A DNA stretch of 64,000 bases from Candidatus Babeliales bacterium (GCA_041671765.1 JBAZAX010000002.1:3609-67608), one strand, 5' to 3'; counted from the first letter of the stretch, positions 613 through 60,234 are shown. Numbers and translations are program-made. Notes: generated by a model from the letters alone, not told the origin.

Positions 613-1680
613 TCGAAAGCTACTTTTGGCATCCACATCACTTTTAGTAGCATCAATCTGCGTTTTTATAACAAAATATCCACGATCGTCAAAAAACGCA
701 GCAATTTTTGACTGCAAGTCAATTTCAGGAGTAAGCGCAAAAACCAATCCCCCTCGACCGGTTCCGGTAAGTTTTGCACCCAACGCACCAAGTGCGAGAG
801 CTTTATCAACAATTACATCAAGCTCCGGACACGAAACTCCAATCGCTTGTAACAGACTATGATTTTTGTTCATGCACACGCCAAGTTTTTCTAAATTATT
901 ACGCTCAAGTGCATCAATACCTAGATTAAAAATACTTTTATATTTATTAAATATTTCTTTGGTTTTATCCGGTTTTTTTTCAATAAAATCACGCACAGCC
1001 AACACAACTTGTTTTGTATCTGTTTGCTTGCCACTATCGATAATTACAATCCTAATCGGGTTAGAAATTTGAATTTTTGAATAAGAAAAGGCGGGAGTAA
1101 ATAGACCCGCTCGTGCCTGTACGTGTATCGAACCACCGCCCAGCGGGCGACGGGCAGCGTTTTGGGAAAATTTTATTACACCCCCAAAAACTGCCGCTGT
1201 ATTATCAATGCCACTTGGAGTACCATGAACTGCAGATTCTCCAACGAATGCCGCTTGATTTATATTTTCGTCGCTCAAATTAAGTTTAAATTTAGAATTT
1301 ATTGCACGAGCAAAAGATGTTGCCGCTGCAGCACTTGCGCCAATGCCACCACACGTTACAGGTAATGTACCCGTAAACGTTACAGTAAAATTTTTTTCTT
1401 TTATTTCAAAAAAATTCAGAATATTCTCGCACATGCACCTGTATTCAGCTTTTTTGCTGGAAATAAAACCAGGGGATTTCGGCCTGTTGTCAATTAAAAC
1501 TAAATGGTTATAAGAAGTTTTTTGAAAGTTATCTGGAGAGTTATCTTGAATTTCAGCGTAAGTTTTTAAATTAAGCGATGCGACAAGTGCAGGTAACCCA
1601 TGCACAACAAAATGCTCACCCAGCAAAATGATTTTTCCATATCCAAAATTATGCGCTTTTTCCAAATTATCTAACTTCAT
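532..1680 (-). CDS. mvk: Mevalonate kinase (GHMP kinase family)
   Basis: N-terminal 'GKIILLGEHFVVHG' and GHMP ATP loop 'PVTCGGIGASAAAATS'. ATGA 4-nt overlap with the upstream DUF35 gene. The last ~25 codons and an internal ~23-codon patch are encoded by GC-rich repeat copies. Confidence 0.85.
   Translation of the reverse strand: MKLDNLEKAHNFGYGKIILLGEHFVVHGLPALVASLNLKTYAEIQDNSPDNFQKTSYNHLVLIDNRPKSPGFISSKKAEYRCMCENILNFFEIKEKNFTVTFTGTLPVTCGGIGASAAAATSFARAINSKFKLNLSDENINQAAFVGESAVHGTPSGIDNTAAVFGGVIKFSQNAARRPLGGGSIHVQARAGLFTPAFSYSKIQISNPIRIVIIDSGKQTDTKQVVLAVRDFIEKKPDKTKEIFNKYKSIFNLGIDALERNNLEKLGVCMNKNHSLLQAIGVSCPELDVIVDKALALGALGAKLTGTGRGGLVFALTPEIDLQSKIAAFFDDRGYFVIKTQIDATKSDVDAKSSFRLEICHPELVPGLPAEAISKRRLGSMD
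1091..1160. repeat. GC-rich dispersed repeat copy (B-like + E-like), in frame inside mvk
   Basis: 'AGACCCGCTCGTGCCTGTACGTGTATCGAACCACCGCCCAGCGGGCGACGGGCAGCG'. Compare 'GAACCCGCTCGTGGTGAGCTTGTCGAACCAT' at 17847-17877. Confidence 0.6.
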
Positions 1681-2075
1681 AAAGCAGGCACAAACTTCAA
1701 ACCATATTCAATAATACCGTTATTGCCATGCGAATAAAATTTTCTGAATGTCGACTGCACGCGCATTCCAATCTTTAAGTCACAAAGACTAACATCTGCA
1801 AGCGCAACTGTAATTTGTGGACCTTCGTCAAGCTGCACAATGCCAATACAATAAGTAGGCATATGTTTAAACTCCACACAAGAACTGGTAATATTGGTAA
1901 AAGAGATCAATTTACCAAATCCACTAAATTTGAAAGTTTTGAAATCTCTTGATCCACACGAACATAAAAAAGATTTTAAATAATAAGCTTTTTCACAAAC
2001 GATACATTTTGTTCCCTCAAGAGTATATCTCTTGGGGTACTGCCTCCATCCGGGAATTGAACTTGAACTAAACAC
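1677..2075 (-). CDS. DUF35-type zinc-ribbon/OB-fold protein (thiolase/HMG-CoA synthase partner-like)
   Basis: Cys cluster 'KCIVCEKAYYLKSFLCSCGS' followed by an OB-like C-terminal half. It sits directly downstream of thiolase and HMG-CoA synthase, as in archaeal gene sets. Confidence 0.7.
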   Translation of the reverse strand: MFSSSSIPGWRQYPKRYTLEGTKCIVCEKAYYLKSFLCSCGSRDFKTFKFSGFGKLISFTNITSSCVEFKHMPTYCIGIVQLDEGPQITVALADVSLCDLKIGMRVQSTFRKFYSHGNNGIIEYGLKFVPAL

Positions 2076-2084
2076 TACTTCTCC

Positions 2085-3248
2085 TTATTTTCGTTCAAAA
2101 ATATGAACAACAGCCGTGGTTCCAATTCCACCAATATTGTGAGTAAGGCCATATTGAGCATTTTCTACCTGTCGTTGCCCACATCGACCCAAAAGCTGAT
2201 TTACAACTTCAATCACCTGTGAAATTCCACTTGCCCCAACCGGATGTCCTTTTGCTTTAAGCCCACCGGAAGTGTTAACTGGCAACTCACCAGTAATTTG
2301 AGTTTTACCTTGTGCCGTTTCAAACCCAGCGGTACCTTGCTTAAAAAAACCCAGATCTTCAAGCGCTATAATTTCTGCCATACTAAACGCATCGTGAATT
2401 TCTGCAACTCTAATATCGCGTTGCGTAATCCCCGCAATTTCAAAAGCTTTTTTACCGGCTATTTTTGTTGCTTTAAAACTTGTTATCTCTTCTCTGCTTG
2501 CAAGATCAAGTGTATCTGTCGCTTGAGTACTTGCAATTATATTAACACCGGTTTTGCCATATTTTTTTGCAAAATCATAACTCGAAATTATAACTGCAGC
2601 AGCTCCATCGCTAATCGGTGCACAATCAAGTAAACGTAACGGGTCAGCAACAACGGGAGAATTAAAGTAATCGTCTAATGTTATTTTTTTGTTAAATTGA
2701 GCCATTGGATTTAATGCTGCATTATTATGATTTTTGATACTGACGGCAGCCAGTTCTTTACTAGTCAACCCATATTTTTGCATATAAAGACGTGTAACCA
2801 TGGCAAAAAGTCCCGGAAATGTTGCCCCCGCAAAATGCTCTGATTGATAATCTCCGGCCCCCATCAAAGCCGATGTTGCCTGCGAAATTGCAACATCACT
2901 CATTTTTTCAACACCAATCACCATTACAACATTTGCAGCACCCGAAAGTATTGCCTGAACTCCACATATAAGGGCAGAGCTCCCGGAGGCGCAAGCATTT
3001 TCCACTCTAACACTGGGAACATTTATTCCAAGCTGCTGCGCAACAATCGCACCCAAATGCGCCTGTCCGTTGAATTGTTGAGCAAGCATGTTCCCTACAA
3101 AAATCGACTCTATCTGCGCAGGAGCAATTCCTGCGTCATCAAGGGCCATGAATTGTGCTTGCGCAATTAAATCATGCAAACTTTTATCCCACAATTCCGC
3201 AAATTTTGTGCATCCGACGCCAAGCACCGAAATTTTCATCTCATGCAC
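2085..3248 (-). CDS. Thiolase (acetyl-CoA C-acetyltransferase, archaeal/SCP-x-like type)
   Basis: Active-site Cys context 'VENACASGSSAL' and C-terminal 'KGHPVGASG' and 'HNIGGIGT'. 387 aa. Tightly packed between the HMG-CoA synthase and DUF35 genes. Confidence 0.85.
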   Translation of the reverse strand: MHEMKISVLGVGCTKFAELWDKSLHDLIAQAQFMALDDAGIAPAQIESIFVGNMLAQQFNGQAHLGAIVAQQLGINVPSVRVENACASGSSALICGVQAILSGAANVVMVIGVEKMSDVAISQATSALMGAGDYQSEHFAGATFPGLFAMVTRLYMQKYGLTSKELAAVSIKNHNNAALNPMAQFNKKITLDDYFNSPVVADPLRLLDCAPISDGAAAVIISSYDFAKKYGKTGVNIIASTQATDTLDLASREEITSFKATKIAGKKAFEIAGITQRDIRVAEIHDAFSMAEIIALEDLGFFKQGTAGFETAQGKTQITGELPVNTSGGLKAKGHPVGASGISQVIEVVNQLLGRCGQRQVENAQYGLTHNIGGIGTTAVVHIFERK

Positions 3249-3252
3249 ACCT

Positions 3253-4320
3253 TCACTTCATATCCTGATATAATAAATCAATATTTCTTCGATATTCAGA
3301 GTATGTTAAATATTTTTTATAACTTAAATGACTTTTTAAATCATATCCTGGACCCACACCACTATTGATAAGCTTTTTTATATTCTGAGTAGTTTTTAAA
3401 ATAAAAGCATCACAACCACTCCCACTTCCATAACTAACTAACAGTATTTTTTTATCAGGTTGTGCTTGATCAAGAACGGAACACAAACCTAATAAAGAAC
3501 TTGCACTGTAAGTATTTCCAATATCCTGCACGACAAACCCTGGATTGATTTGTTCTGATTTAAAACCTAAACTTTTTGCAACCATTAGCGGAAGTTTGCC
3601 GTTAGGTTGATGAAAAACAACATAATCAAATGCTTCCGGACCACAGGAATGTTTTTCAAAAATTTTTTTCACAATTGTACTGACGTGTTTTAAATATGCC
3701 GGCTCCGCGGTAAAACGTCCTGCATGTTCCGGATATTTTTGCATACTGCGACGCCAAAAATCAGGGGTATCTGATGCAATTGAAATTGTATCCTCAATAT
3801 TTGCAATAATCTTAGAGTCATCTGTGCCAAGAATAAATGCAGCCGCACCGGCACCGGCACTATACTCAAGAATATCGCCAGGAGAGGCTTGAGCTGTATC
3901 AGTTCCTATTGCCATTCCGAATTTTGCAAAACCTGATTTTACCAGACCAAGACAAACGCCTAATGCCGCAGTACCTGCCTTGCATGCAAACTCCATATCT
4001 GCAGCCATGCAAAAACTATCTGCACCAATAGCTGCACCAACAATTGTTGCCGTTGGTTTTACTGCATATGGAGCACTTTCGCTACCAACGTAAATAGCAT
4101 TAATTTCTTTAGAATTTAAACCACACTGTAAAAGAGAATTTTTTGCGGCATTAACTGCAAAAGTTACGGAGTCCTCGTCAATACCGGGAACAGATTTTTC
4201 TTCAATCAAGAGGCTAGATTTAATTTGATGAAAATTTTGTTGCCAAGCCTTGGCTATCTCTTCAGCCTTTATTCGATAGACCGGAATATAAAAACCATAT
4301 CCGACAATTCCAACATTCAT
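3253..4320 (-). CDS. HMG-CoA synthase (short archaeal-like form)
   Basis: 'MNVGIVGYGFYIPVYRIKAEEIA', 'GSESAPYAVKP', 'FACKAGTAAL' and 'VFHQPNGKLP'. I place the start at ATG 4318-4320, because ORF-track codons 4321-4404 are read through a GC-rich repeat copy. Confidence 0.8.
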   Translation of the reverse strand: MNVGIVGYGFYIPVYRIKAEEIAKAWQQNFHQIKSSLLIEEKSVPGIDEDSVTFAVNAAKNSLLQCGLNSKEINAIYVGSESAPYAVKPTATIVGAAIGADSFCMAADMEFACKAGTAALGVCLGLVKSGFAKFGMAIGTDTAQASPGDILEYSAGAGAAAFILGTDDSKIIANIEDTISIASDTPDFWRRSMQKYPEHAGRFTAEPAYLKHVSTIVKKIFEKHSCGPEAFDYVVFHQPNGKLPLMVAKSLGFKSEQINPGFVVQDIGNTYSASSLLGLCSVLDQAQPDKKILLVSYGSGSGCDAFILKTTQNIKKLINSGVGPGYDLKSHLSYKKYLTYSEYRRNIDLLYQDMK

Positions 4321-4338
4321 TATCAACTCTTTTTGTAA

Positions 4339-4457
4339 TCCTGCCTGTCCGCCACGTGTCGGCCATAGCCACCTGGGCGACGGCTGATAGCTCTTCGCGC
4401 TCATGGTGAGCCAGTCGAACCACGGCTGGGAACTTGATTCAGGATCAATGGATTAAC
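4339..4457. repeat. GC-rich dispersed repeat copy (E + B-like + D)
   Basis: 'CCTGCCTGTCCGCCAC..GGGCGACGGC', 'GGTGAGCCAGTCGAACCAC' and 'TTGATTCAGGATCAATGGATTAAC', immediately upstream of the HMG-CoA synthase start. Confidence 0.75.
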
Positions 4458-4511
4458 AAGTTCTTTAGGACACATTTGCGCATACTTGAGAAGTAAGTCT
4501 ACCACCTTTTA

Positions 4512-5807
4512 TCATCTATTCAACACATAAGTCTCAAGTAATTTTTTCAGTGAAATTTTTTTCCAGATATTTAAACGCCCATTACAACACGGCAGTGCTA
4601 TGACAGCTCCATCAACAGAAAGTTCTCCTGAAGAAACTCCGGATTCAGGATCTAATTCTTGAATTTTAATATATTGGCCATGTACAAATTTCCATATTTT
4701 AGTTCTAGTATTTAAGCCCCCTGCCATTACCAAAGATTTATCATAGGAAATTTTAACAAATTCCGCCCAACTATTTGAGCTAAGCTTTTGCAACAGACTA
4801 TAGCTGCAATTAGTTGAGTTGAATTGCAATACATTTAATTCTTCGGATGCAACAACAATAATATTTTTATCTTCTGATAGAGCCGCAGTATGAAGAAATC
4901 TATCTTCACTTGTAATGGTAGCAGCTAGTGCATAATGTGGTATCTCTAGCATCTCACTTAACTCAATACGATGTGCTATATCTCTTAACTCTAAATCAGT
5001 TAATCCGATGCGATCCATTTTCCAGACATAGATACTTGGGGTGTAAATTAACGTGGAACAAAATATAAAAACCTCTTGATCTGCAGAAAATTTTAAATTT
5101 TTTGGATATAACTGATGACCATAAAATTCTCTTACCTGATTATATACATTCCCATCAAAATGCCAAAAATTTATTGTACGATCATCACACCCAATAACTA
5201 TAAGCTTCTGATCCTGCGAAATAGCAACAGATAACACAAATGAGTTACAGGCCAGGCGTTGAAAATAAGTATATTCTGTTCCATTAAATTTCCATATATT
5301 TACTGAATCATCATCCATGGATGACGTTATAATTAAATTTTTATCTGAGGAAATTAAAACAGAATCTATTTTGGCTCTCCCCTTCTTAAAAAAGTGCCCC
5401 CGCAGTGTTTGAAAATATTGGTAGCTCTCACCGTTCAGCCTCCATATTTTCACGCAAGAATCACCGCCACCGGTGACAATAAGTTCATTATCACTTGAAA
5501 TACAAACAGATTCAACATAACGATCTGCTTGTATTGTCTGCGATAACTCATAATATTGTTTGAGGAATAATGATAACACATCAAATAATTTCGCCTCAAT
5601 TTCTTGAATTAAATCGCCTGGTAATCTTGATTGTAATTCTCCAAGCCTAGCAACAGGATCAGATGATTTTAATATATCAGAAACTATTCTATCATATGAC
5701 AAAGCTAAAAGACTTGGGACAGAATTTGAATCCATTGCATCTGCATAATTATTTTTTGAGCAACAAATAATGATAAATAAAAAAAATATTTTTCTAATAT
5801 TCTTCAT
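4512..5807 (-). CDS. WD40-repeat protein with N-terminal signal-like segment (paralog 1)
   Basis: Hydrophobic N-terminus 'IFFLFIIICCS'. Repeated WD-like blades 'VTGGGDSCVKIWRLNG', 'DDSVNIWKFNG', 'DRTINFWHFDG' and 'TKIWKF'. Shares long near-identical strings with the adjacent ORF. Confidence 0.75.
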   Translation of the reverse strand: MKNIRKIFFLFIIICCSKNNYADAMDSNSVPSLLALSYDRIVSDILKSSDPVARLGELQSRLPGDLIQEIEAKLFDVLSLFLKQYYELSQTIQADRYVESVCISSDNELIVTGGGDSCVKIWRLNGESYQYFQTLRGHFFKKGRAKIDSVLISSDKNLIITSSMDDDSVNIWKFNGTEYTYFQRLACNSFVLSVAISQDQKLIVIGCDDRTINFWHFDGNVYNQVREFYGHQLYPKNLKFSADQEVFIFCSTLIYTPSIYVWKMDRIGLTDLELRDIAHRIELSEMLEIPHYALAATITSEDRFLHTAALSEDKNIIVVASEELNVLQFNSTNCSYSLLQKLSSNSWAEFVKISYDKSLVMAGGLNTRTKIWKFVHGQYIKIQELDPESGVSSGELSVDGAVIALPCCNGRLNIWKKISLKKLLETYVLNR

Positions 5808-5852
5808 AAGATTCCAAGCATTATTAATTATTTAAATGATTCTTTTTATCAT

Positions 5853-7181
5853 CTATTCAACAGCAAGAATCTGGCATTTCTTTGCATAAATTTCAAGTAA
5901 TTTTTCAAGTGATATTCTTTTCCAAATATTGATACACCCGTTGTCACCGGTTAAAACAACAACATGCCCATTCACAGAAAGATCTCCCTTAGAAACTCCA
6001 AATTGGCAATCTATTTCTTGAATTTTAACATATTTATCTTGTTGTCTTATAAATTTCCATATCTCAATTTTATCATTTGGCCTACCCGCCATTATTAAAG
6101 ATTTATCATAGGAAACTTTAACAAACTGAGCCCACCCTCCTGTGCTAAGTTGTTGTAATAGGCTACAACTATAATCAGCTCCATTGAGTCTCAATACATT
6201 CAAATCTTCGGATGCAACAACAATAATATCTCTATCTTCGGACAAATCCGCGGCATTGAGATGACTACACCAATTTACAATTGTATTAGCTAATCGATAT
6301 TGCGGAACTCCGATCGGCTCGATCTCGTCCAATTTCAAAATTCGAATACTAGGAGTCCCTCCTAACATAGAACAACATGTAACGGTTCTCTTATCTGAAG
6401 AAAATTTTAGATTTTCCGGATATACATTAGGATCAGAAAAATTTTGCCCCTCATTATATTTATTTCCATCAAAATACCAAAACCGTATTGTATTATCATC
6501 GCATCCAACAATGATAATTTGCTGATCTTGTGAGATAGAGATAGATAATACCAAAGAATTACAGGCTAACTGTTGAAAATATGTGTATTCGGATCCATTA
6601 AATTTCCAAATATTTACTGAATCATCATCAATAGATCCAGTAATAATTAAATTATTGTCTAAAGAAATTAATACGGAATCTACTCGATCCATATTTGGCA
6701 CAGAAAAAAAATCCTGCTCCGAAGAAATTAATGCATAATCTTTTTTTGACATGCCCCTCTTAGCAAAGTGTCCTGGCAGTGTTTGAAAATATTCATATCC
6801 CTTCCCATTAAATCGCCATATTTTTACGGAAGAATCATTCCCTCCTGTTACAATAAGTTGGTTGTCCATTGAAATACAAACGGATGCTATGGCGTTATGA
6901 GATTGAATTGTCTGAAATAAATCATATTGTTGCTTGCAGTCAAACGAAAGTATGTTAAATAATTCATTCTCAACTTCTTGTATTAACTCAACTGGCAAAC
7001 TTGATTGTGCTTTTCTAAACATATCAACAGGATTATGTGATCTTAATATATCAGAAACTATTTTATCACATGCTATCTTTGCAAGGCACGGGGTCAACTT
7101 TGAACTCATGGCACCAGCGTAATAATTTTCTGAACAACAAATAACAAACAATAATAAAAATAAATAACTAAATTTTTTCAT
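5853..7181 (-). CDS. WD40-repeat protein with N-terminal signal-like segment (paralog 2)
   Basis: Same architecture as 4512-5807: 'VTGGNDSSVKIWRFNG', 'DDSVNIWKFNG' and 'DNTIRFWYFDG'. Tandem duplicate with an extra insert after blade 1. Confidence 0.75.
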   Translation of the reverse strand: MKKFSYLFLLLFVICCSENYYAGAMSSKLTPCLAKIACDKIVSDILRSHNPVDMFRKAQSSLPVELIQEVENELFNILSFDCKQQYDLFQTIQSHNAIASVCISMDNQLIVTGGNDSSVKIWRFNGKGYEYFQTLPGHFAKRGMSKKDYALISSEQDFFSVPNMDRVDSVLISLDNNLIITGSIDDDSVNIWKFNGSEYTYFQQLACNSLVLSISISQDQQIIIVGCDDNTIRFWYFDGNKYNEGQNFSDPNVYPENLKFSSDKRTVTCCSMLGGTPSIRILKLDEIEPIGVPQYRLANTIVNWCSHLNAADLSEDRDIIVVASEDLNVLRLNGADYSCSLLQQLSTGGWAQFVKVSYDKSLIMAGRPNDKIEIWKFIRQQDKYVKIQEIDCQFGVSKGDLSVNGHVVVLTGDNGCINIWKRISLEKLLEIYAKKCQILAVE

Positions 7182-7318
7182 AATGCATTGGACCTTATAA
7201 AGATTAAGAACAATTTTGACAATTAAAACTATTTATTGTCCTGCAGAATAACCTAAATGCAAAAAAATGTTAATTTAAATTTAGAGTAATAGTATTGATT
7301 CTAAGAGCTAGCATAAAC

Positions 7319-8575
7319 TTAAATAATTATCGGATTCAAAATCCAATCTTCAAATCGCAAATCCGTTTTTAAAATTCCGTAAACAGCTCTGTCTACTATT
7401 CCATATTCTGTTGCCGTAGTAAATGTAAAAATAGGAATTTTCTGATGAGCCACCACTATTTGACCAGCTGCCCACTCATCTTGACTGACAACCCCATCCC
7501 ATTGAATAGGCGCCCCCTGTTGTAGCTGATCTTTAAATATTGATAAACCACCTGCATGATGTTGATGCCCACGAAAAATTGCCAGAATACCGCTATCTTT
7601 AAACCACTTCACCATATCACATGTGGATAAATATTCTAACCAACTAATTCTTTTTAAATTCATTTCTATAGTAGATCCATTTCCTTGAAAATCCCCCCAC
7701 ACAAAACCATTCACAGCATCAGTACGACCAAAACCAATCTTGTTAAAATCAATATAACTAACCATCTCCGAATTATTTAAAAAATATCGCATATCACAAC
7801 ATGGATCAATAGCCCCATGACAACACTGTATCCAGTTATCTCCGGATTTTAGGTATAAAACAAGCACAAGCCGCTTGTACAACTCATCAAATTTTTTCAA
7901 ATAAATTGCCCCATTATCCACCCCATATTTTGCAACTAACTCAGCAAAAAAACCGACTGGAGTATCACTATTTTGCAACAAATTTTCATGGTTACCTCTC
8001 AAAACAAAAACTTTATCCCAATTTGCCAACTTTAAGCGCAATAGTGTATACCAAACCTCAACACCATACATACCACGATCAACATAGTCACCTGTAAAAA
8101 CAATATACAAATTATTTTTTATAATTTTAAAATCATCAGCTACATATTTTTTTATAATTTTTAATAAAGAATGAGCACTACCATGAATATCCCCAACAAA
8201 AACTATTTCACCCCCAAGAGGGACAATTTGTTTCTGACAATAGGAGAGATTTACATCTGTCGCAAAATTAAACTGCGCACGAAACAGACTCAAATACTCC
8301 TCGATTAATTTACTGATACACGAAAATGGGATAAACAACTGTGGCAGATGACTGAACACTTTTAACTGATCTTCCACGACTAAATCATCCATACGCCTTT
8401 GCTCAGGCATATTATCCATTTGCTGGATAAACCAACTTAACGGTTTCTTGTCAGCAGAAGAATCGCCCAATAAAATTGGAAGCCTGGAGGCAGAATTTAT
8501 CCACGGCAACCATAAAACAATTAATACAAAAAACAACACCCTAAATCTGTAAATTTGCTTGTAATTCATCGACAC
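7319..8575 (-). CDS. PPP-family Ser/Thr-type metallophosphatase with N-terminal signal/anchor
   Basis: Complete PPP motif set 'VGDIHG', 'GDYVDRG' and 'LRGNHE', plus later 'FRGHQHH'. N-terminal hydrophobic stretch 'VLFFVLIVLWLPWINSA'. Confidence 0.8.
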   Translation of the reverse strand: MSMNYKQIYRFRVLFFVLIVLWLPWINSASRLPILLGDSSADKKPLSWFIQQMDNMPEQRRMDDLVVEDQLKVFSHLPQLFIPFSCISKLIEEYLSLFRAQFNFATDVNLSYCQKQIVPLGGEIVFVGDIHGSAHSLLKIIKKYVADDFKIIKNNLYIVFTGDYVDRGMYGVEVWYTLLRLKLANWDKVFVLRGNHENLLQNSDTPVGFFAELVAKYGVDNGAIYLKKFDELYKRLVLVLYLKSGDNWIQCCHGAIDPCCDMRYFLNNSEMVSYIDFNKIGFGRTDAVNGFVWGDFQGNGSTIEMNLKRISWLEYLSTCDMVKWFKDSGILAIFRGHQHHAGGLSIFKDQLQQGAPIQWDGVVSQDEWAAGQIVVAHQKIPIFTFTTATEYGIVDRAVYGILKTDLRFEDWILNPIII

Positions 8576-8673
8576 TCCCCATATTCAAGCATCAGTGCAA
8601 TAAATTAATGCACTAGCTCAAGATTGCCAATATCTAATACAAATTGTCAATGAATTAATAATTACTATATCAA

Positions 8674-9828
8674 TTACTTGCTTCGCAGATGCAATCGCAT
8701 ATGCCCTTTTTGAATTCCCTCCCCAATCAGGGCTTTAAGCGCTGCAAAATTCTGCGCCAGGCCAACACTTGCAATAATTTGTGCAAGATCTGAGGCAGAT
8801 TTTACATCAAGAATTTTTAAACAAAGTTTAGCAAAAGGATTATTTTTTGTAGCGCCACCAACGATGCCAACAACAAGTGGAATTTCGATTGTTCCAACAA
8901 GATTACCACTCTCATTTTTTGAATATTCTGTTAAAGGCTTATAAGAATTGTGCATAGCCGCGTATCCATGAACACCAGACTCGATTGCACGAAAATCATT
9001 GCCTGTTGCCAAACAAACTGCATCAATTCCATTCATTATGCCTTTGTTATGTGTAATGGCACGGAATATATCAATTTTTGCAATCTCATTTGCCTGGATA
9101 ATTTTATTTATTAAATCAGAACCAAGCTCTTCTTTTGACCAAATGGCACGAGCTTTTACAACTCTATTAACAGCAAGATTTGATAATATTTTTAACAACA
9201 CAGTGCCGCATGTTAATTTTTCTATAACAGGCGCTATTGCTTCGCACATTGTGTTTACAACATTTGCACCCATTGCATCTTTGACATCAACCAAAATATG
9301 CAAAACTAAAACTTTTCCAAGTGATATTGATTCTATTTCTCGAATATTTAAATCAAATGCTCCCCCACCCAAATTTACAAGCACAGAATCTTGAGCATTT
9401 GCAAATTCAAGAATTTCAGTTTTATGTTCTTCTATGTTTTGCTTTGCCTGAGAAATATTCGTAATATTTAAAACATGCACCTGCCCAATCATCACAGATC
9501 GACTTACACTTGCAGTAAATCCACCACAGGTTCTGGCCAATTTTGCCGCATTACTTGCAGCTGCAATTACGCTGGCCTCTTCAGTGGCCAGCGGAACCAA
9601 ATAATCTTTGCCATTAATTATAAAATTTGTAGCAAGGCCAAGCGGCACAGGAAAAACAGAAATCATATTTTCGATCATCTGCTCAGCAACGCCAAATTCC
9701 AAATTATCTTTTAAATTTAATAACAAAAGATCTTGCTCGGAAAGTCCTGCAAACTTTCTTAATAAATTAAGCCGCTCATCGCGGCTTAATTTGTAAAATT
9801 CTTTTATTCTGCTGTTGCGTTCTCTCAT
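8674..9828 (-). CDS. mvaA: HMG-CoA reductase, class II type
   Basis: 'MIENMISVFPVPLGLATNFIINGKDYLVPLATEEASVIAAASNAAKLA' follows the class II pattern (ENxIG...NFxINGxDxLVP..EEPSxxAAAS). C-terminal 'GIQKGHMRLH'. Confidence 0.85.
   Translation of the reverse strand: MRERNSRIKEFYKLSRDERLNLLRKFAGLSEQDLLLLNLKDNLEFGVAEQMIENMISVFPVPLGLATNFIINGKDYLVPLATEEASVIAAASNAAKLARTCGGFTASVSRSVMIGQVHVLNITNISQAKQNIEEHKTEILEFANAQDSVLVNLGGGAFDLNIREIESISLGKVLVLHILVDVKDAMGANVVNTMCEAIAPVIEKLTCGTVLLKILSNLAVNRVVKARAIWSKEELGSDLINKIIQANEIAKIDIFRAITHNKGIMNGIDAVCLATGNDFRAIESGVHGYAAMHNSYKPLTEYSKNESGNLVGTIEIPLVVGIVGGATKNNPFAKLCLKILDVKSASDLAQIIASVGLAQNFAALKALIGEGIQKGHMRLHLRSK
9761..9808. repeat. Direct repeat copy X (inside the HMG-CoA reductase 5' codons)
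   Basis: 'AATAAATTAAGCCGCTCATCGCGGCTTAATTTGTAAAATTCTTTTATT'. By hand alignment about 44 of 49 positions match 10444-10490. Confidence 0.8.
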
Positions 9829-14920: not shown

Positions 14921-16543
14921 ATGCCTAAGGAAAAACGTACGCTACACACATACTTATTGCTAGCTCTCTTTCTGTTCTCAACTTTCTCGTTCATTAAATC
15001 AGACATCAAAGAAATTGATTCTATAGCTCAAGTTAAAGAAGAATTTCAAAGTGCTAACAACAAAACCCTGGTCATCTTCGATATGGATGATACTTTAATT
15101 GTTCCTGTTGATAAAATATTTTATGTCATGAAGTGCGTTAACAGAAATATCAATGATTTTGACGAGCAAGATAAGGAATTTGTAAAACAACTTAGACTTG
15201 GTGCAGAACGACTCATTTCGGACAAAAGAGATCAAAATTATGCAATAAGACTTGAAAGTTCGATAGATTCCAAAACAAGATTTGTTCCCACGGAAGATGA
15301 TACAGTCAAATTAATTAAAAATATGCAAAATCGAAACGTTAAAGTTATTGCGCTTACCGCAGCAAAAACAGGAGTTTTTGGGGTGATTGATAATTTAGGC
15401 GAATGGCGCTTGAAAAATCTTGCAAGCATTGGACTTGATTTTAGCTCAAGCTTTAATATTCAAGAAATTATTTTTGATAAATTAAAAAAATCAAATTTTA
15501 GTGGATATCCTGAATATTACAAGGGAATATTGATGGCTGCAAATAATCCCAAGGGAAAGGTTCTAGCCTCATTCCTTGATAAGAATGACGACTGGAAACC
15601 AGATAAAATCATATTCCTTGATGATAGTTATAATAATTGCAAAAATGTTGATGAAGCCATGAAACAACTTGGTATACCAATTCAATGTTACTGTTATAGG
15701 GCTGCATTTAAAAATAAAATTAAGTTAAACCAGAAAGTTATAAGATATCAGTTTGACCACTGGATTAAACACGAAGAGTTTTTAACAGAACAAAAGGCAC
15801 TTGAAAAGATTGATAACGAGCCAGCATATATAATTTACGATTTTGAAAAAGAACAAGTTATAAAAGACGATGGCGACATCCAAACACAAGAGAGCCCATG
15901 TTCAACTTTCAAGATAGCATTAAGTTTAATGGGTTTTGATTCAGGAATTCTTAAAAATGAGAATGCGCCTGAATGGCACTATAAAGATGAATACAACGCA
16001 GAATTCGATTTTTGGCGATGCGCCCAAACCCCAAAATCATGGATCAAAAAATCTTGCATCTGGTACTCGCAAGTTTTAACATCCATACTCGGGCCAGAAA
16101 AATTTCAAAATCACGTGAACAGTTTTTGTTACGGGAACAAGGATGGTTCCGGCAATCCAGGTAAAAACGATGGACTTTCAAGATCATGGCTATGTTCAAA
16201 TTTAAAAATCTCGCCAACTGAGCAAATTGAATTTCTCAAAAATTTATTGAAAAAAACTCTGCCAGTTTCTGAATATGCGCATGAACAAACGCAAAATATT
16301 TTGTATATTTCAGATCTTACTGATGGATGGAAGTTGTACGGCAAAACTGGGGCTGGGATTTATGAAGGTGGCATCAAGAGTATTGGCTGGTTTATTGGTT
16401 GGATTACAAATAAACAAATCAAAAAAACACTTATTTTCGCATATCTAATCAAATCAAATAATGATAAAATTGTTGTGAACGGCAACTTGGCAAAAGAAAA
16501 CATTCTGAAAATTTTAACCGAGGGATGTCATGCAAATTGTTAA
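14921..16543 (+). CDS. Secreted fusion protein: HAD-like (DxDxT) domain + class D beta-lactamase/BlaR-sensor-like domain
   Basis: Signal-like N-terminus. HAD motifs 'VIFDMDDTLIVP' and 'IIFLDDSYNN'. The C-terminal half has the class D set 'STFK', 'SCI' (SxV-type), 'YGN', 'KTG' and 'GWFIGW'. Confidence 0.75.
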   Translation: MPKEKRTLHTYLLLALFLFSTFSFIKSDIKEIDSIAQVKEEFQSANNKTLVIFDMDDTLIVPVDKIFYVMKCVNRNINDFDEQDKEFVKQLRLGAERLISDKRDQNYAIRLESSIDSKTRFVPTEDDTVKLIKNMQNRNVKVIALTAAKTGVFGVIDNLGEWRLKNLASIGLDFSSSFNIQEIIFDKLKKSNFSGYPEYYKGILMAANNPKGKVLASFLDKNDDWKPDKIIFLDDSYNNCKNVDEAMKQLGIPIQCYCYRAAFKNKIKLNQKVIRYQFDHWIKHEEFLTEQKALEKIDNEPAYIIYDFEKEQVIKDDGDIQTQESPCSTFKIALSLMGFDSGILKNENAPEWHYKDEYNAEFDFWRCAQTPKSWIKKSCIWYSQVLTSILGPEKFQNHVNSFCYGNKDGSGNPGKNDGLSRSWLCSNLKISPTEQIEFLKNLLKKTLPVSEYAHEQTQNILYISDLTDGWKLYGKTGAGIYEGGIKSIGWFIGWITNKQIKKTLIFAYLIKSNNDKIVVNGNLAKENILKILTEGCHANC

Positions 16544-17226: not shown

Positions 17227-18756
17227 ATGGGAGTAGTAATGATCGAATTAATTAAAAAAGAAAAAAATTTTTTGCTACTTACGTTTTTTTTATCTCTTGC
17301 AATCAAAGTAATTTTCTTTCTAATTTTTCTCAAAAATAACTCCTGTTTATTAATGTTTGATTCAGGGCAGTATCACAAAGTCGCACTCAATATTTTATCG
17401 TGGACAGGTCAGACAAATTTTTACCGTATGCCAGGCTATCCGGTATTTTTAGCCGCTTGCTACAAAATTTTCGGGGTGCATCCCATTGCGGCTCTTATAA
17501 TGCAAATTATACTTGGCTCTCTAATTCCATTATTAGTATTTGCTCTTGCACTAGTATTGTTTGATAAATCAACATTTAACAGCCAGATAAAAACGGCTAA
17601 ACTTGCGAGTTTAGTTGCCTGTTTTGATCTTGGTTATATAATTTTCCCCGGACTAATCATGTCCGAAATATTATTTACTATGTTTTTCACGCTATTTCTA
17701 ATTTTATTTCTGTATAATTACACGCCATTTTTTTGCAAAAGCCCTCTTCTAAAAACATTAAGACAGCCCCTTCGACAGGCTCCCAGCCTTCGCTCAGAAT
17801 TAGCTTCGGCGGGCAGGCAGGGTGAGCGCGACGAGCACACTAAAGAACCCGCTCGTGGTGAGCTTGTCGAACCATTTCAACGGGTTCTTACATTTCCAAT
17901 TTCCAGATTGTTTTTGGCAGGAATAGCTCTCGGAATAGCTTGTCTGATCAGACCTGTTGGACATGGCCTGTTCTTAACATCAATTTTTATGCTGATGGTT
18001 TCAAAAGATAAATTTTTTGTAAAAATAAAATCTATAGCACTGTTTAGTACTGGGCTTGCATTCACATTGGGTATATGGATATTCAGAAATTTTCTTCTAA
18101 CCGGCTACATTTTTATGCACACACTTTCAGGCCCACATTTTTTAAATCATTCAGCAGTAAGGCTTTGCATGATGGATGAAAAAATAACTTATGAACAGGC
18201 ACAAAAAAAGGTTTACGCTGAACTTAAAAATCTTGAACCAGCAAAAACAAATGTACTGGGCAAGCCGTTGCAAGAAATCGAGCACTGCCAATTAGCGGAA
18301 AAGCTCGCAATATCTTACATGCTTAAGAACCCCGTACTTACAGTTCAACATTTTATATCAAACATGTTAAAAACAACATTTGGACTTTATAGCTCTGAGT
18401 TACTTGTAATAGACTCCGGCGGGCAACTCCCTGAATACAGTAATAATCGAAGTATTAAAAGCATTTTTAAACGTTTTTTGCTTCCTGACGTAAATAATAA
18501 ATTTATAATTTGGGTAATTTATTTTGAAATAATATTTTTTTTATTTATTTTACTTGGCCTAGCCATATTTATATTTATATCACCAATTGATCGCGGAAAA
18601 ATATGTACACTCATCAAAACACTGCCTTTTATCTGCTGCTTAATATTTTTGACTCTTTCATGCGGTTATGCGAGATTAAGATTGCCAATCGAATCATTTT
18701 TAATTATTTTAGCGATTAAAGAATGGCAACTTTTATTTTCTAAAAAAGGGGAGTAA
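17227..18756 (+). CDS. GT-C-like polytopic membrane glycosyltransferase, paralog 2 (carries in-frame GC-rich repeat)
   Basis: 'FYRMPGYPVFLAACYKIFG', 'LIRPVGHGL', 'FRNFLLTGYIFMHTL' and 'CGYARLRLP' parallel ORF 12768-14336. Codons at 17761-17890 come from a composite repeat. Alternative start ATG at 17239. Confidence 0.65.
   Translation: MGVVMIELIKKEKNFLLLTFFLSLAIKVIFFLIFLKNNSCLLMFDSGQYHKVALNILSWTGQTNFYRMPGYPVFLAACYKIFGVHPIAALIMQIILGSLIPLLVFALALVLFDKSTFNSQIKTAKLASLVACFDLGYIIFPGLIMSEILFTMFFTLFLILFLYNYTPFFCKSPLLKTLRQPLRQAPSLRSELASAGRQGERDEHTKEPARGELVEPFQRVLTFPISRLFLAGIALGIACLIRPVGHGLFLTSIFMLMVSKDKFFVKIKSIALFSTGLAFTLGIWIFRNFLLTGYIFMHTLSGPHFLNHSAVRLCMMDEKITYEQAQKKVYAELKNLEPAKTNVLGKPLQEIEHCQLAEKLAISYMLKNPVLTVQHFISNMLKTTFGLYSSELLVIDSGGQLPEYSNNRSIKSIFKRFLLPDVNNKFIIWVIYFEIIFFLFILLGLAIFIFISPIDRGKICTLIKTLPFICCLIFLTLSCGYARLRLPIESFLIILAIKEWQLLFSKKGE
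17761..17890. repeat. Composite GC-rich repeat (module A interrupted by module C, then hairpin module B), in frame in GT-C paralog 2
   Basis: 'CCTTCGACAGGCTC' + 'CCAGCCTTCGCTCAGAATTAGCTTCGGCGGGCAGGC' + 'AGGGTGAGCGCGA' ... 'AAGAACCCGCTCGTGGTGAGCTTGTCGAACCATTTCAACGGGTTCTT'. Confidence 0.85.
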
Positions 18757-20235
18757 ATGGTATCAAGCAAAAAAAGAGCCTTAATCATAGGGGCTGGACC
18801 TGCGGGTCTTACCGCTGGTTATGAGCTTTTAAAAACACAAAAATTTAGCGCAGAAATCATAGAAAAAGATAATCAGATCGGCGGACTTGCAAAAACAGTC
18901 AATTACAAAAATTACAAGTATGACATTGGGCCCCATCACTATGTCACAGAATCAAAAGAAATTGAAAAATGGTGGAAAAATATAATAAGTGAAGATGAAT
19001 TTATAAAATTAAATCGTTTTACACGAATTTATTACAATAAACATTTTTTCTTGTACCCGCTTCAACCAATCAACGCATTAATGGGATTAAGTCCATTTGA
19101 GTCAATACACTGCGTTTCTAGTTATTTTCGATATAAGTTATGGCCTAAAAAAGTTAATTCTTATGAAGACTGGCTCTCGAATAGGTTCGGGAAAAGGCTT
19201 TTTGAAATATTTTTTAAATCGTACACAGAAAAGCTTTGGGGAATAAAATGCGATCAGATTTCTGCCGACTGGGCTGCACAAAGAATTAAAAATTTTTCAC
19301 TTGGCAAGGCAATGTTTTTTGCATTCTTCGGAAAACTTTTCAAAAAATATACGCCCCGAACAATTTTAGGCGAATTTTATTATCCAATTTATGGCGCAGG
19401 AACATTGTGGGATAATGTTGGTAAAAAAATAATAAATTCTGAATTCGGCTCAATTCACACCAATAAAAAAGTTATGTCAATTGAACATGACGGTAAAAGT
19501 ATTTTGGGCGTATTAACAAAAAATATGTCTGATGAAAACCAACACAGCGAAATACAACACATGTCGCAAAAATTAACTCGATATGAAGCAGACTACTTTT
19601 TATCAACAATGACTTTACGTGACTTGGTTTTAAACATGGATCCAATCGCGCCCAAAGAAGTTGTTAATGCTGCCATGCAACTACGTTGCAGAGCGCTTAT
19701 AACACTCAACTTAATTATAGATAAAGAAAAGATTACGCCTGACCACTGGCTTTACATTCATGAAAAAAGTGTTCGTACAATAAGAATTGGAAATATGAAC
19801 AATTTTTCAGCCAAATTAAGACCTAATGAAAATCACTCTGCAATAAGCCTTGAGTGCTTTACGTTTACTGATGAGCCATTCTGGATTAAGACAGATGAAG
19901 AGTTACTTGAACAAGCAAAACTCGAAATTGATAAAATAGGTCTTGTGAAAAAAGAATTAATTATTGACGGCATGGCATTAAGAATTCCCGATGCCTACCC
20001 AATTTATGAAGGCAATTACAAAGAATATTTAAATATCGTTTATAACTATCTTGGTAAATTTAAAAATCTTAAATTGATGGGCAGGAATGGCATGCACCAG
20101 TATAACAACATGGACACTGCAATGCTTTCTGCCATGAAAGCTGTTGATGAAATTATTAGTTATGAAGATAAATATAAAACCAAAATAAATTTAAAAACAA
20201 AAACACAGAAGCATTCTGAAGCACAACTTAATTAA
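18757..20235 (+). CDS. FAD/NAD(P)-binding oxidoreductase (amine-oxidase/desaturase-like)
   Basis: Dinucleotide-binding 'ALIIGAGPAGLTAGYEL' followed by 'EKDNQIGGLAKT'. The ATG overlaps the upstream stop (TAAATG). Confidence 0.7.
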   Translation: MVSSKKRALIIGAGPAGLTAGYELLKTQKFSAEIIEKDNQIGGLAKTVNYKNYKYDIGPHHYVTESKEIEKWWKNIISEDEFIKLNRFTRIYYNKHFFLYPLQPINALMGLSPFESIHCVSSYFRYKLWPKKVNSYEDWLSNRFGKRLFEIFFKSYTEKLWGIKCDQISADWAAQRIKNFSLGKAMFFAFFGKLFKKYTPRTILGEFYYPIYGAGTLWDNVGKKIINSEFGSIHTNKKVMSIEHDGKSILGVLTKNMSDENQHSEIQHMSQKLTRYEADYFLSTMTLRDLVLNMDPIAPKEVVNAAMQLRCRALITLNLIIDKEKITPDHWLYIHEKSVRTIRIGNMNNFSAKLRPNENHSAISLECFTFTDEPFWIKTDEELLEQAKLEIDKIGLVKKELIIDGMALRIPDAYPIYEGNYKEYLNIVYNYLGKFKNLKLMGRNGMHQYNNMDTAMLSAMKAVDEIISYEDKYKTKINLKTKTQKHSEAQLN

Positions 20236-33573: not shown

Positions 33574-34014
33574 TTATCTGTTTTTTTTATGAATAGATCT
33601 CTTCTGCAACTTAAGAACCCGTTGAAATGGTTCGACAAGCTCACCACGAGCGGGTTCTTCAAAATGTTCATCGCGCTCACCCTGAGCTTGTCGAAGGGTC
33701 TGCTTGCTTGCATTTAGAAGAGATCTAGTAACTTCTTGTGTAACACTTATGCCAAGCCTTACCAATACACTGGATAGATCAAAATTTTGTGTATCAATTT
33801 TTATCATTTTGTTCCTCGATGTTGCGCCACGCAATATTTTAAAACAATCAGTAGAGATCCCAAGTGCTTTACTTAGTAGCTTTACCAATTCCTCATTTGC
33901 CTTCCCACCTTCTGGCTTACTTTTTAATCTGCACTTAATAATTCCGGATTTATCTTGCTCAAAGCCCTGCTGTTTGGAGTTTGGAACAACTTTTAACTCA
34001 ATAACTACAGACAT
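33574..34014 (-). CDS. DUF167 (YggU-like) protein with repeat-encoded C-terminal extension
   Basis: 'LKVVPNSK...KCRLKSKPEGGKANEELVKLLSKALG' is the DUF167 core. The last ~45 codons ('LRQAQGERDEHFEEPARGELVEPFQRVL') are read from a GC-rich repeat. Confidence 0.7.
   Translation of the reverse strand: MSVVIELKVVPNSKQQGFEQDKSGIIKCRLKSKPEGGKANEELVKLLSKALGISTDCFKILRGATSRNKMIKIDTQNFDLSSVLVRLGISVTQEVTRSLLNASKQTLRQAQGERDEHFEEPARGELVEPFQRVLKLQKRSIHKKNR
33611..33705. repeat. GC-rich repeat (modules B + A, opposite orientation to 17761-17890)
   Basis: 'AAGAACCCGTTGAAATGGTTCGACAAGCTCACCACGAGCGGGTTCTT' has 9-bp inverted arms. It is followed by 'TCGCGCTCACCCTGAGCTTGTCGAAGGG'. Confidence 0.85.
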
Positions 34015-58716: not shown

Positions 58717-60234
58717 ATGATTAAGATATCAATTATCACCGTTTTTCCTGAATTACATGAAAATTTCATTAACACGAGCTTGATTCAACGTGCCGTTAAA
58801 CAAGAAATTATTCAATTCAATCTCGTGCGTTTTTCAGACATGTGTCAACCCAAAGAACGAATTGACGAACCAACCGTTGGACATGGCGCCGGAATGATAA
58901 TTAAGCCTGAAGTTATCCAAAAGGCAATTGATCAGTGCCAAGAAAAGTGGGGTTCCGGATTTAAAATCTTTTTTTCGCCTCAGGGACAAAGACTTGATCA
59001 ACGCAAACTAAGCAATATTTATAAAAAATTGATATCCCGGGACCAAAATCAACAAGATCAAACTGGTAAATCTAACCAAGGACAAGCCATCGTATCCGCT
59101 CCTATAAGCACCACTGAGCCTTTTCCAGAATCAGACGCGTCACCTATCGGTGATGGTTCGACAAGCTCACCACGAGCGCGCCAGCTTGATGGCACTCTTC
59201 CTGAGCCTATCGAAGGATGCGAGCTTCAGAAGAGATATACTGAATCAGATCTTCATTTAATACTTATATGTTCTCGATACGAAGGCATCGACGAACGCGT
59301 AGAAAGTTTTTATGCAGACATGACAGTATCAATCGGCGACTATGTATTAATGGGCGGAGACCTTCCAGCACAGGTCTTCTTGGAAGGACTTTTGCGATTG
59401 ATTCCAAATGTTGTTGGAAAAACAGCTTCTGTAGAGAACGAATCGTTCCAGGGAGCTTTTTTTGACCACCCTGAATATGGGCTGCCAGTTGAATGGAATC
59501 AACTGAAAATTCCGGATGTATTGCGTTCAGGGAATCACAAGCAAATAGCAATATGGCGAAAAGAACAGGCTGTTAAAAAAACAATTTTAAATAGATTTGA
59601 TTGGATACAAGAAAGTCACCCGGATGAAACGGATCTTGAACTTTGCAGAAAATTTATTCCTAACCATTATGTCGTAATAATGCACTCCCAAGTTATTGTT
59701 GGAGACGGGCATAAAGTTGGGCACACATCTGTGGCATCAATAGACATTCACGACATCGCCCGCAGTTGTAAAACATATGGCATCAAGAATTTTTTTATTG
59801 TTACGCAGCTTGAAGATCAGTTCAAGATCGTAAACACATTTTTTGATTTTTGGCATTCCAAAAAAGGCAAAGATTACAACTTAAGCCGCTACAACGCGAT
59901 CGAATCCGTGATTTTAACAAAATCATTCGAGTCAGTACGGGAACAAATTAAACAAAAAGAGAATCTGGATCCTATCATAATTACAACATCTGCAAAATCT
60001 CATGGAAACGGCGTAAAAATTGATTACTTCAGCCAAGGACTTGTTTGGCAAGAGAATCGACCGGTTTTGATTGTTTTTGGCACAGGACAGGGGCTCAGCG
60101 ATGAAATAATGGATCAAAGTAATTTTATCCTCACCCCGGTTCGTGGCCTTACCAGTTACAACCATCTTTCTGTAAGATCTGCTGCTGCAGTTATTCTTGA
60201 CAGATGGCTTGGATTAAATTCAAAAGTTGAGTAA
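58717..60234 (+). CDS. trmD: tRNA (guanine37-N1)-methyltransferase TrmD fused to a second SPOUT-like (TM1570/Methyltrn_RNA_4-like) domain
   Basis: TrmD part: 'ISIITVFPELHENF', 'VGHGAGMIIKPE' and 'LICSRYEGIDERV'. C-terminal ~200 aa: 'VASIDIHDIARSCKTYGIKNFFIV', 'VFGTGQGLSDE' and 'YNHLSVRSAAAVILDRW'. 505 aa in total. Confidence 0.8.
   Translation: MIKISIITVFPELHENFINTSLIQRAVKQEIIQFNLVRFSDMCQPKERIDEPTVGHGAGMIIKPEVIQKAIDQCQEKWGSGFKIFFSPQGQRLDQRKLSNIYKKLISRDQNQQDQTGKSNQGQAIVSAPISTTEPFPESDASPIGDGSTSSPRARQLDGTLPEPIEGCELQKRYTESDLHLILICSRYEGIDERVESFYADMTVSIGDYVLMGGDLPAQVFLEGLLRLIPNVVGKTASVENESFQGAFFDHPEYGLPVEWNQLKIPDVLRSGNHKQIAIWRKEQAVKKTILNRFDWIQESHPDETDLELCRKFIPNHYVVIMHSQVIVGDGHKVGHTSVASIDIHDIARSCKTYGIKNFFIVTQLEDQFKIVNTFFDFWHSKKGKDYNLSRYNAIESVILTKSFESVREQIKQKENLDPIIITTSAKSHGNGVKIDYFSQGLVWQENRPVLIVFGTGQGLSDEIMDQSNFILTPVRGLTSYNHLSVRSAAAVILDRWLGLNSKVE
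59135..59232. repeat. GC-rich repeat (module B core and related sequence), in frame inside trmD
   Basis: 'GGTTCGACAAGCTCACCACGAGCG' is identical to 33639-33662. It is followed by 'GAGCCTATCGAAGGATGCGAGCTTCAG'. Confidence 0.75.

Follow-up and report, generated by a model that had tools for sequence, protein, structure and literature searches.

An archaeal-type thiolase/HMG-CoA synthase/DUF35 gene module as the probable mevalonate pathway entry of a Candidatus Babeliales bacterium

The stretch of DNA analyzed here, referred to below as the window, comprises 64,000 nucleotides from a Candidatus Babeliales bacterium (GCA_041671765.1 JBAZAX010000002.1:3609-67608), and its minus strand carries a compact run of four genes that would belong to the upper part of the mevalonate (MVA) pathway. 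In the direction of transcription, these encode a 355-aa archaeal-type 3-hydroxy-3-methylglutaryl-CoA (HMG-CoA) synthase (HMGCS; 3253-4320, ATG start, N-terminus MNVGIVGYG), an acetoacetyl-CoA thiolase resembling archaeal and SCP-x enzymes (2085-3239 from an ATG, 384 aa, or 2085-3248 from a GTG, 387 aa), a 132-aa DUF35 protein composed of a zinc ribbon and an OB-fold and presumed to act as a scaffold (1677-2075, GTG start after AAGGAG), and a 382-aa mevalonate kinase (MVK, encoded by mvk; 532-1680). A class II HMG-CoA reductase (HMGR) of 384 aa is encoded upstream on the same strand (8674-9828). The genes for the synthase, the thiolase, and the DUF35 protein, hereafter the trio, carry matching family annotations in public records, and the members of the 90% identity cluster are annotated as 'Candidatus Babeliales bacterium' (Dependentiae). 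Neighbors in the window include a class A penicillin-binding protein as well as ankyrin and WD40 proteins.

As read from the DNA, the HMGCS stop codon is separated from the thiolase start by 4 nt if the GTG is used or by 13 nt if the ATG is used; the ATG is preceded by a Shine-Dalgarno-like AAGGTG, and the resulting 384 aa is the length of the thiolase in gene callers and homologs. Between the thiolase stop and the DUF35 start lie 9 nt that contain an AAGGAG, and mvk is translationally coupled to the DUF35 gene through a 4-nt ATGA overlap. An earlier note on this DNA had given the coordinates, order, and spacing of these genes and had quoted the motifs ENACASGS for the thiolase and CxxC..CxC for the DUF35 protein, and all of these were recovered from the open reading frames (ORFs) and the DNA, with gaps of 4-13 nt or a 4-nt overlap and with the DUF35 cysteines at C24, C27, C38, and C40.

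The family assignments lie well outside the range of chance. The synthase passes two archaeal NCBIfam equivalogs, PRK04262 at 480.9 bits (cut-off 244) and TIGR00748 at 440.5 bits (cut-off 353.35), and it fails the bacterial MvaS equivalog TIGR01835 at 136.9 bits (cut-off 360.35). Its best match in the PDB is 6ESQ_I (E = 6e-115, 52% identity), from the tripartite complex that, according to the accounts in PMC12960953 and PMC6996347, has been structurally characterized in Methanothermococcus thermolithotrophicus (6ESQ/6ET9; Vögeli et al. 2018), while the MvaS structures 1TVZ and 1X9E reach 80-90 bits. The tetrad E81/C113/H237/N269 aligns with the archaeal E82/C114/H238/N270, which, together with the histidine of the thiolase HDxF motif, a 2026 mutational study found to be essential for the formation of HMG-CoA by the archaeal complex (PMC12960953). 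All 120 sequences in the alignment, made up of 118 top homologs, the window protein, and the 6ESQ protein, keep this tetrad. The earlier note had named the lack of the catalytic Cys/His/Glu residues beforehand as one finding that would count against it, and Glu81, Cys113, His237, and Asn269 are all kept.

A similar picture emerges for the thiolase, which passes PRK06064 with 503 bits (cut-off 420) and has 6ESQ_A as its best PDB match (E = 2e-95, 46% identity, 323 bits). It is not an AtoB/thiolase II enzyme, reaching 114 bits against TIGR01930 (cut-off 241) and lying far from the AtoB/FadA-type models. Its motifs are intact (C83-A-S85, H282-D-A-F285, and G331-H332-P), H282 aligns with the archaeal H284, and the CxS, HDxF, and GHx residues are essentially invariant among 40 thiolase sequences. 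The DUF35 protein matches PF01796 (E = 1.6e-11), and its best PDB match is 6ESQ_E (E = 1.2e-23, 87 bits, about 37% identity). Each member of the trio thus best matches a subunit of 6ESQ/6ET9, and the archaeal type that the earlier note had assigned to it holds up, the synthase passing the archaeal models and failing MvaS. The likeness to the M. thermolithotrophicus complex extends across the three families, the catalytic residues, and the DUF35 fold, whereas the bacterial host, the zinc knuckle described below, membership in a separate bacterial clade, and linkage of the operon to a class II reductase gene and mvk set the predicted Babeliales complex apart.

It is conceivable that these enzymes act in the mevalonate pathway without an archaeal-style channeling complex, the DUF35 protein having another scaffold role or none, and it is the DUF35 protein that bears most directly on this. 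Its knuckles are spaced CxxC-x10-CxC, with a 2-residue deletion, in four of the four bacterial proteins compared, whereas the archaeal form is CxxC-x10-CxxC, a difference that perhaps reflects an altered structure and speaks for the absence of a complex. The CxC form occurs in 24, and the CxxC form in 100, of the 149 best representative DUF35 clusters drawn from a library of 1.84 billion proteins, and CxC is concentrated among the closest matches. The AlphaFold2 model, for which the best fold match is to the DUF35 chains of 6ESQ (TM 0.71), is also of only moderate confidence (mean predicted local distance difference test score of 75) and drops to low confidence at residues 61-70 and 111-120. 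Against the absence of a complex, all 14 relatives compared keep the four cysteines; the C-terminal GIIEYGLKFxP (GIIxYGxKFxP) is common to the archaeal scaffold; the DUF35 gene directly follows the thiolase gene in every bacterial locus examined, despite a reduced genome; and DUF35 is the scaffold in all solved homologous complexes (6ESQ, 5M3K, 9VBO, 6OK1, and 7PXP). We therefore regard independent action of the enzymes as unlikely and favor a DUF35-scaffolded module, in which, by analogy with the archaeal system, the three proteins would physically associate, the CxC knuckle would bind zinc, and acetoacetyl-CoA would be channeled.

A tripartite set of this kind might instead be a repurposed complex, such as a Phl/Muc-type Friedel-Crafts acyltransferase, a PfACAT-like thiolytic complex, or a degradative enzyme resembling BbsAB or Ltp2-ChsH2. 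Of the 1,030 HMGS/ACAT/DUF35 clusters on record for bacteria, 1,001 are uncharacterized, and those that have been tested have lost HMG-CoA synthesis (PMC12960953), which lends this explanation some weight. PhlABC (5M3K), MucABC (9VBO), and the PfACAT/HMGS-DUF35 complex are like the trio in being tripartite bacterial sets with the same folds, and they provide its next-best PDB matches. However, the E-C-H-N tetrad has been lost from all three, as has HDxF from Phl and Muc, whereas the corresponding motifs in the window are intact and encoded beside HMGR and MVK. As it is the loss of these residues that defines the repurposed complexes, the trio falls outside the PhlABC/MucABC-type group. Matches to Phl, Muc, BbsAB, and Ltp2-ChsH2 are also far lower than those to 6ESQ, at 187 (BbsB), 113 (Ltp2), and 103 bits compared to 323 for the thiolase and at 55, 40, 24 (ChsH2-DUF35), and 15 (BbsA) bits compared to 87 for the DUF35 protein. 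The trio does not belong among the degradative thiolase-DUF35 pairs, a placement that the earlier note had named as one that would count against it. Furthermore, the trio is operonic with HMGR and MVK in two related loci (L004 and L009), and there are no polyketide synthase, nonribosomal peptide synthetase, or steroid genes nearby in the window. Repurposing thus appears extremely improbable, and an anabolic, HMG-CoA-forming trio is the reading that we carry forward. Occurring naturally in a bacterium and with its catalytic residues intact, it offers a useful contrast to the repurposed Phl and Muc complexes and a candidate for engineering.

The arrangement is conserved beyond the window. A search of genome contigs with the HMGCS protein yielded two close relatives, which were used for synteny. 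In the Babeliales loci L004 (HMGCS 86% identical) and L009 (62%), the genes form a contiguous HMGR-HMGCS-thiolase-DUF35-MVK operon, while in a third Babeliales locus, L003 (HMGCS 90% identical), a metallophosphatase gene and one WD40 gene stand between HMGR and HMGCS. A more distant Babeliales locus, L005, encodes a class II HMGR, HMGCS, thiolase, and DUF35, plus MVK and a phosphomevalonate kinase (PMK). The order HMGCS-thiolase-DUF35 is common to L003, L004, L005, L006, L008, and L009, of which L008 belongs to a DPANN archaeon, so that the Babeliales gene order is like that of an archaeal locus, and HMGR lies directly upstream of HMGCS in L004, L005, L006, and L009. The L006 cluster (L006:6736-10610) comes from another bacterium and comprises a class II HMGR, an archaeal-type HMGCS, a thiolase, and a DUF35 protein of the CxC form; it neighbors metK, dapF, and namZ, and its protein occurs on contigs as long as 663 kb, so that the module extends beyond Dependentiae.

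In the window, the space between HMGR and HMGCS is taken up by a metallophosphatase gene (7319-8575, minus strand, Pfam Metallophos) and two tandem WD40 paralogs (5853-7181 and 4512-5807, minus strand, Pfam WD40) that encode signal-peptide-like N-termini and are 72-81% identical at the nucleotide level. This insert (4512-8575) is absent from L004 and L009, and its genes look like eukaryote-like effectors of an intracellular bacterium. Because the operon is contiguous in L004 and L009 and interrupted in L003 and the window, an ancestral five-gene operon must have been split by the insertion of effector-like genes. Upstream of HMGCS, a promoter-like block of 40 nt (4484-4523, minus strand; TTGAAT-16 nt-TAGACT) is almost unchanged across the window, L003, and L004, whatever gene precedes it. 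It fits the sigma-70 consensus at 8 of 12 positions, which is the reason it was not listed by the promoter scanner, and it may well serve as the promoter of the HMGCS-thiolase-DUF35-mvk unit. We propose that these four genes form one transcription unit behind this block and that the ancestral unit also held the reductase.

The enzymes downstream of the trio are of a different character. HMGR passes the class II model TIGR00532 at 441.8 bits (cut-off 260) and fails the class I model TIGR00533 at 66.9 bits (cut-off 442); in the PDB it is closest to 6DIO and 1QAX, the class assignment itself coming from NCBIfam TIGR00532. The mosaic proposed in the earlier note, a class II reductase joined to an archaeal-type entry trio, is thus borne out by this score and by its conservation in related loci, and since L005, L006, L008, and the closer relatives carry the same module, the combination of archaeal entry and bacterial downstream enzymes is both real and conserved. 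The kinase scores 209.9 bits against TIGR00549 (cut-off 163) and has in-frame insertions and a C-terminal tail relative to its counterparts in L003, L009, and L005. The closest solved relative of the kinase is PDB 2HFS (189 bits), the Leishmania major mevalonate kinase, with the other MVK structures, whether archaeal, bacterial, or mammalian, reaching at most 85 bits; this hints at a specific relationship between the trypanosomatid MVK and the type of bacterial MVK found in the window. The MvaS/MvaA/MvaK1/MvaK2/MvaD pathway of Gram-positive cocci is alike in its class II reductase and GHMP mevalonate kinase, and the PMK of L005 is of the Gram-positive type (200 bits against TIGR01220, cut-off 166), but in the Babeliales system, HMGCS is not MvaS, the thiolase is not AtoB/thiolase II, and a DUF35 protein is present. 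Two ORFs of 403 and 336 aa beside the PMK and HMGR genes of L005 had no match to a decarboxylase or isopentenyl diphosphate isomerase (IDI).

Taken together, the evidence makes it highly probable that the locus encodes the upper mevalonate pathway of this Babeliales bacterium, entered through a DUF35-scaffolded, archaeal-type thiolase/HMGCS module. In this pathway, the thiolase would condense two molecules of acetyl-CoA to acetoacetyl-CoA, a thermodynamically unfavorable step, and HMGCS would consume the product at once in a favorable reaction with a third acetyl-CoA. The DUF35 zinc-ribbon/OB protein would hold the two enzymes together so that the intermediate is channeled, as in the archaeal complex. 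The class II reductase would then yield mevalonate, the co-translated kinase would phosphorylate it, and downstream enzymes encoded elsewhere would complete the route, the product of which probably serves as polyprenyl phosphate for cell-wall and glycan synthesis. Several points weigh against this interpretation. The thiolase falls below the M. thermolithotrophicus equivalog NF053570, at 474.8 bits relative to a cut-off of 600, and the second knuckle of the DUF35 protein is CxC and not the archaeal CxxC. Pfam scans of some 40 further ORFs of the 64-kb window detected no PMK, decarboxylase, isopentenyl phosphate kinase, IDI, or prenyltransferase, the earlier note having already remarked on the absence of the kinase, the decarboxylase, and IDI. 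To our knowledge, experiments have yet to be reported for a bacterial member that keeps the tetrad. The bacterial complexes characterized so far, namely PhlABC, MucABC, and the PfACAT/HMGS-DUF35 complex of P. fluorescens, make no HMG-CoA (PMC12960953). The design of the phylogenetic trees, considered next, belongs with these points as well.

Neighbor-joining trees were built from the top homologs, with no outgroup and with organism names for about one-sixth of the sequences; the named archaea were methanogens, anaerobic methanotrophic archaea (ANME), Hadarchaeales, and DPANN. In the thiolase tree, a Dependentiae-containing clade stands apart from the named archaea in 200 of 200 bootstraps, with the window subclade at 97%, and in the HMGCS tree, the window clade and the named Dependentiae/Babeliales likewise stand apart from the named archaea. 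The 'archaeal-style' label given to the trio in the earlier note is thus correct as to type, the proteins being neither MvaS nor AtoB, but the sequences form a bacterial clade of their own, and the label should not be taken to imply recent transfer. Recent acquisition from an archaeon, or an artifact of assembly or binning, would account for archaeal-type genes in a bacterial contig, and two observations are in line with it: named archaeal homologs (55-57% identity) are roughly as close as other named Dependentiae (57%), and a thiolase labeled as belonging to the candidate phyla radiation (CPR) sits among the Micrarchaeota, showing that transfers or misbinning occur in this family. In contrast, five independent assemblies carry the same arrangement with bacterial flanks (penicillin-binding protein, MazG-like, epimerase), monophyly of the bacterial clade has a bootstrap value of 100%, and the CxC indel is common to the bacterial loci. 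The GC content at third codon positions of the trio (0.22-0.29, compared to 0.27-0.37 for housekeeping genes in the window) fits the host genome. Given the trees, the CxC marker, and the host-like base composition, we judge recent archaeal transfer or contamination to be very unlikely; rather, the trio appears to represent an old bacterial clade, sister to the archaeal enzymes.

The CPR-labeled thiolase just mentioned (P0243, Candidatus Saccharimonadales), the only one so labeled among the top matches, nests inside the Micrarchaeota (DPANN) clade, away from the Dependentiae clade, a placement that could reflect misbinning or inter-domain transfer between episymbionts. Separately, a near-identical contig in GCA_000315315.2 (AMWB02) was considered as part of a eukaryotic host assembly, and this was discarded, as the assembly is an electrogenic-biofilm metagenome (PMC4595844).

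How the module came to reside in this lineage bears on the debate over whether the mevalonate pathway predates the split between bacteria and archaea. One scenario, which we think possible but rather doubtful, is that the trio was inherited vertically from before this split, in what would be the sole bacterial lineage to keep the ancestral anabolic channeling function. If this were true, the trio would be a living bacterial counterpart of a proposed mevalonate entry module dating to the last universal common ancestor, as well as the sole, essential entry point to isoprenoids for these intracellular parasites. The 2018 PNAS abstract of Vögeli et al. reportedly places the complex in 'some bacterial' genomes. 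For Dependentiae in particular, Hoshino and Gaucher (2018) found that the methylerythritol phosphate pathway is lacking, that the MVA pathway is the only route, and that the acetoacetyl-CoA thiolase (AACT) and HMGS cluster with those of the CPR/archaeal type (PMC6107057). Their results and ours are alike in the phylum concerned, the archaeal/CPR-type AACT and HMGS, and the different affinities of the other enzymes. An archaeal-type entry to the MVA pathway in Dependentiae was therefore already known, and while the presence of the trio in a bacterium, to which the earlier note drew attention, is real, it is not unexpected, having been published for this phylum (PMC6107057). DUF35 (0 occurrences), the operon structure of this lineage, and the insertions are not mentioned in that study (PMC6107057). 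The additions made here are small, namely an explicit DUF35 protein for the phylum, its CxC signature, an ancestral operon of five genes that was later disrupted by effector-like genes, and the repeat insertions described below. What the locus provides is a confirmation, within one operon, that Dependentiae enter their only isoprenoid route via an archaeal-type, putatively DUF35-scaffolded module, with enzymes of bacterial type acting downstream.

A hairpin repeat about 110 nt long and rich in GC (52-57%, compared to 35% for the genome) occurs at several sites in the window and in L004; its core is TGGTTCGACAAGCTCACCACGAGCG, and CCTGAGCCTGTCGAAGG forms the partner arm. Copies lie in the window at 4330-4430 (minus strand), 17755-17900 (minus), 33590-33715 (plus), 59120-59240 (plus), and probably 1085-1201, and in L004 at 8655-8775 and 9254-9316; the window has four copies of the core, against a chance expectation of none. 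The repeat is found in frame inside mvk (in the window and L004), where it accounts for the insertions noted above, a trmD-like gene, and the ORF at 17227-18756, and a yggU-like ORF owes its C-terminal extension to it. Intact copies form strong DNA hairpins (z down to -5.2). At least 120 metagenome contigs, whose median GC content is 64%, contain the exact 25-mer core; this points to a cross-phylum element and led us to reject a Dependentiae-specific, RPE-like repeat. No Rfam family was found for the repeat, nor any paper containing the core or partner-arm strings.

The copy at 4330-4430 (minus strand) is degenerate, with the core TGGTTCGACTGGCTCACCATGAGCG at 4398-4422, lies in the HMGCS leader, and is missing at the same site in L003 and L004. 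It bears on the start of HMGCS, as a 383-aa public annotation (MFA6535207.1 cluster) begins at the ATG at 4404, adding 28 N-terminal aa. We rejected this start in favor of that at 4320 based on the length of HMGCS homologs (345-355 aa) and on the conservation in L003 and L004 of AAGAGTTGAT(A/G)ATG at the 4320 start, where an AAGAG lies upstream of the ATG. The 28 extra codons are read-through of the repeat, and the extension is spurious because the ORF to 4404 translates the repeat inserted in the leader. The HMGCS leader was also considered as a regulatory RNA and set aside, with a fold z of -1.1, no Rfam match, and the segment absent in L003 and L004.

Elsewhere in the window, the ORF at 18757-20235, which has an amine-oxidase fold, was considered as a carotenoid/squalene desaturase and rejected, as it corresponds to PRK07208, is UDP-galactopyranose-mutase-like, and is located among glycan genes. 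A penicillin-binding transpeptidase encoded at 14921-16543 (plus strand) is fused to an N-terminal DUF2608 domain, while at L009:9409-11274, DUF2608 is fused instead to a CPT/AAA_18 kinase-like domain; DUF2608 thus seems to be a mobile module in the Babeliales lineage. Finally, the ORF at 58717-60234 (plus strand) encodes a 505-aa protein that combines TrmD (tRNA m1G37 methyltransferase) with a C-terminal Methyltrn_RNA_4 domain (S-adenosylmethionine-dependent RNA methyltransferase), and the hairpin repeat is inserted within its TrmD part without breaking the reading frame.

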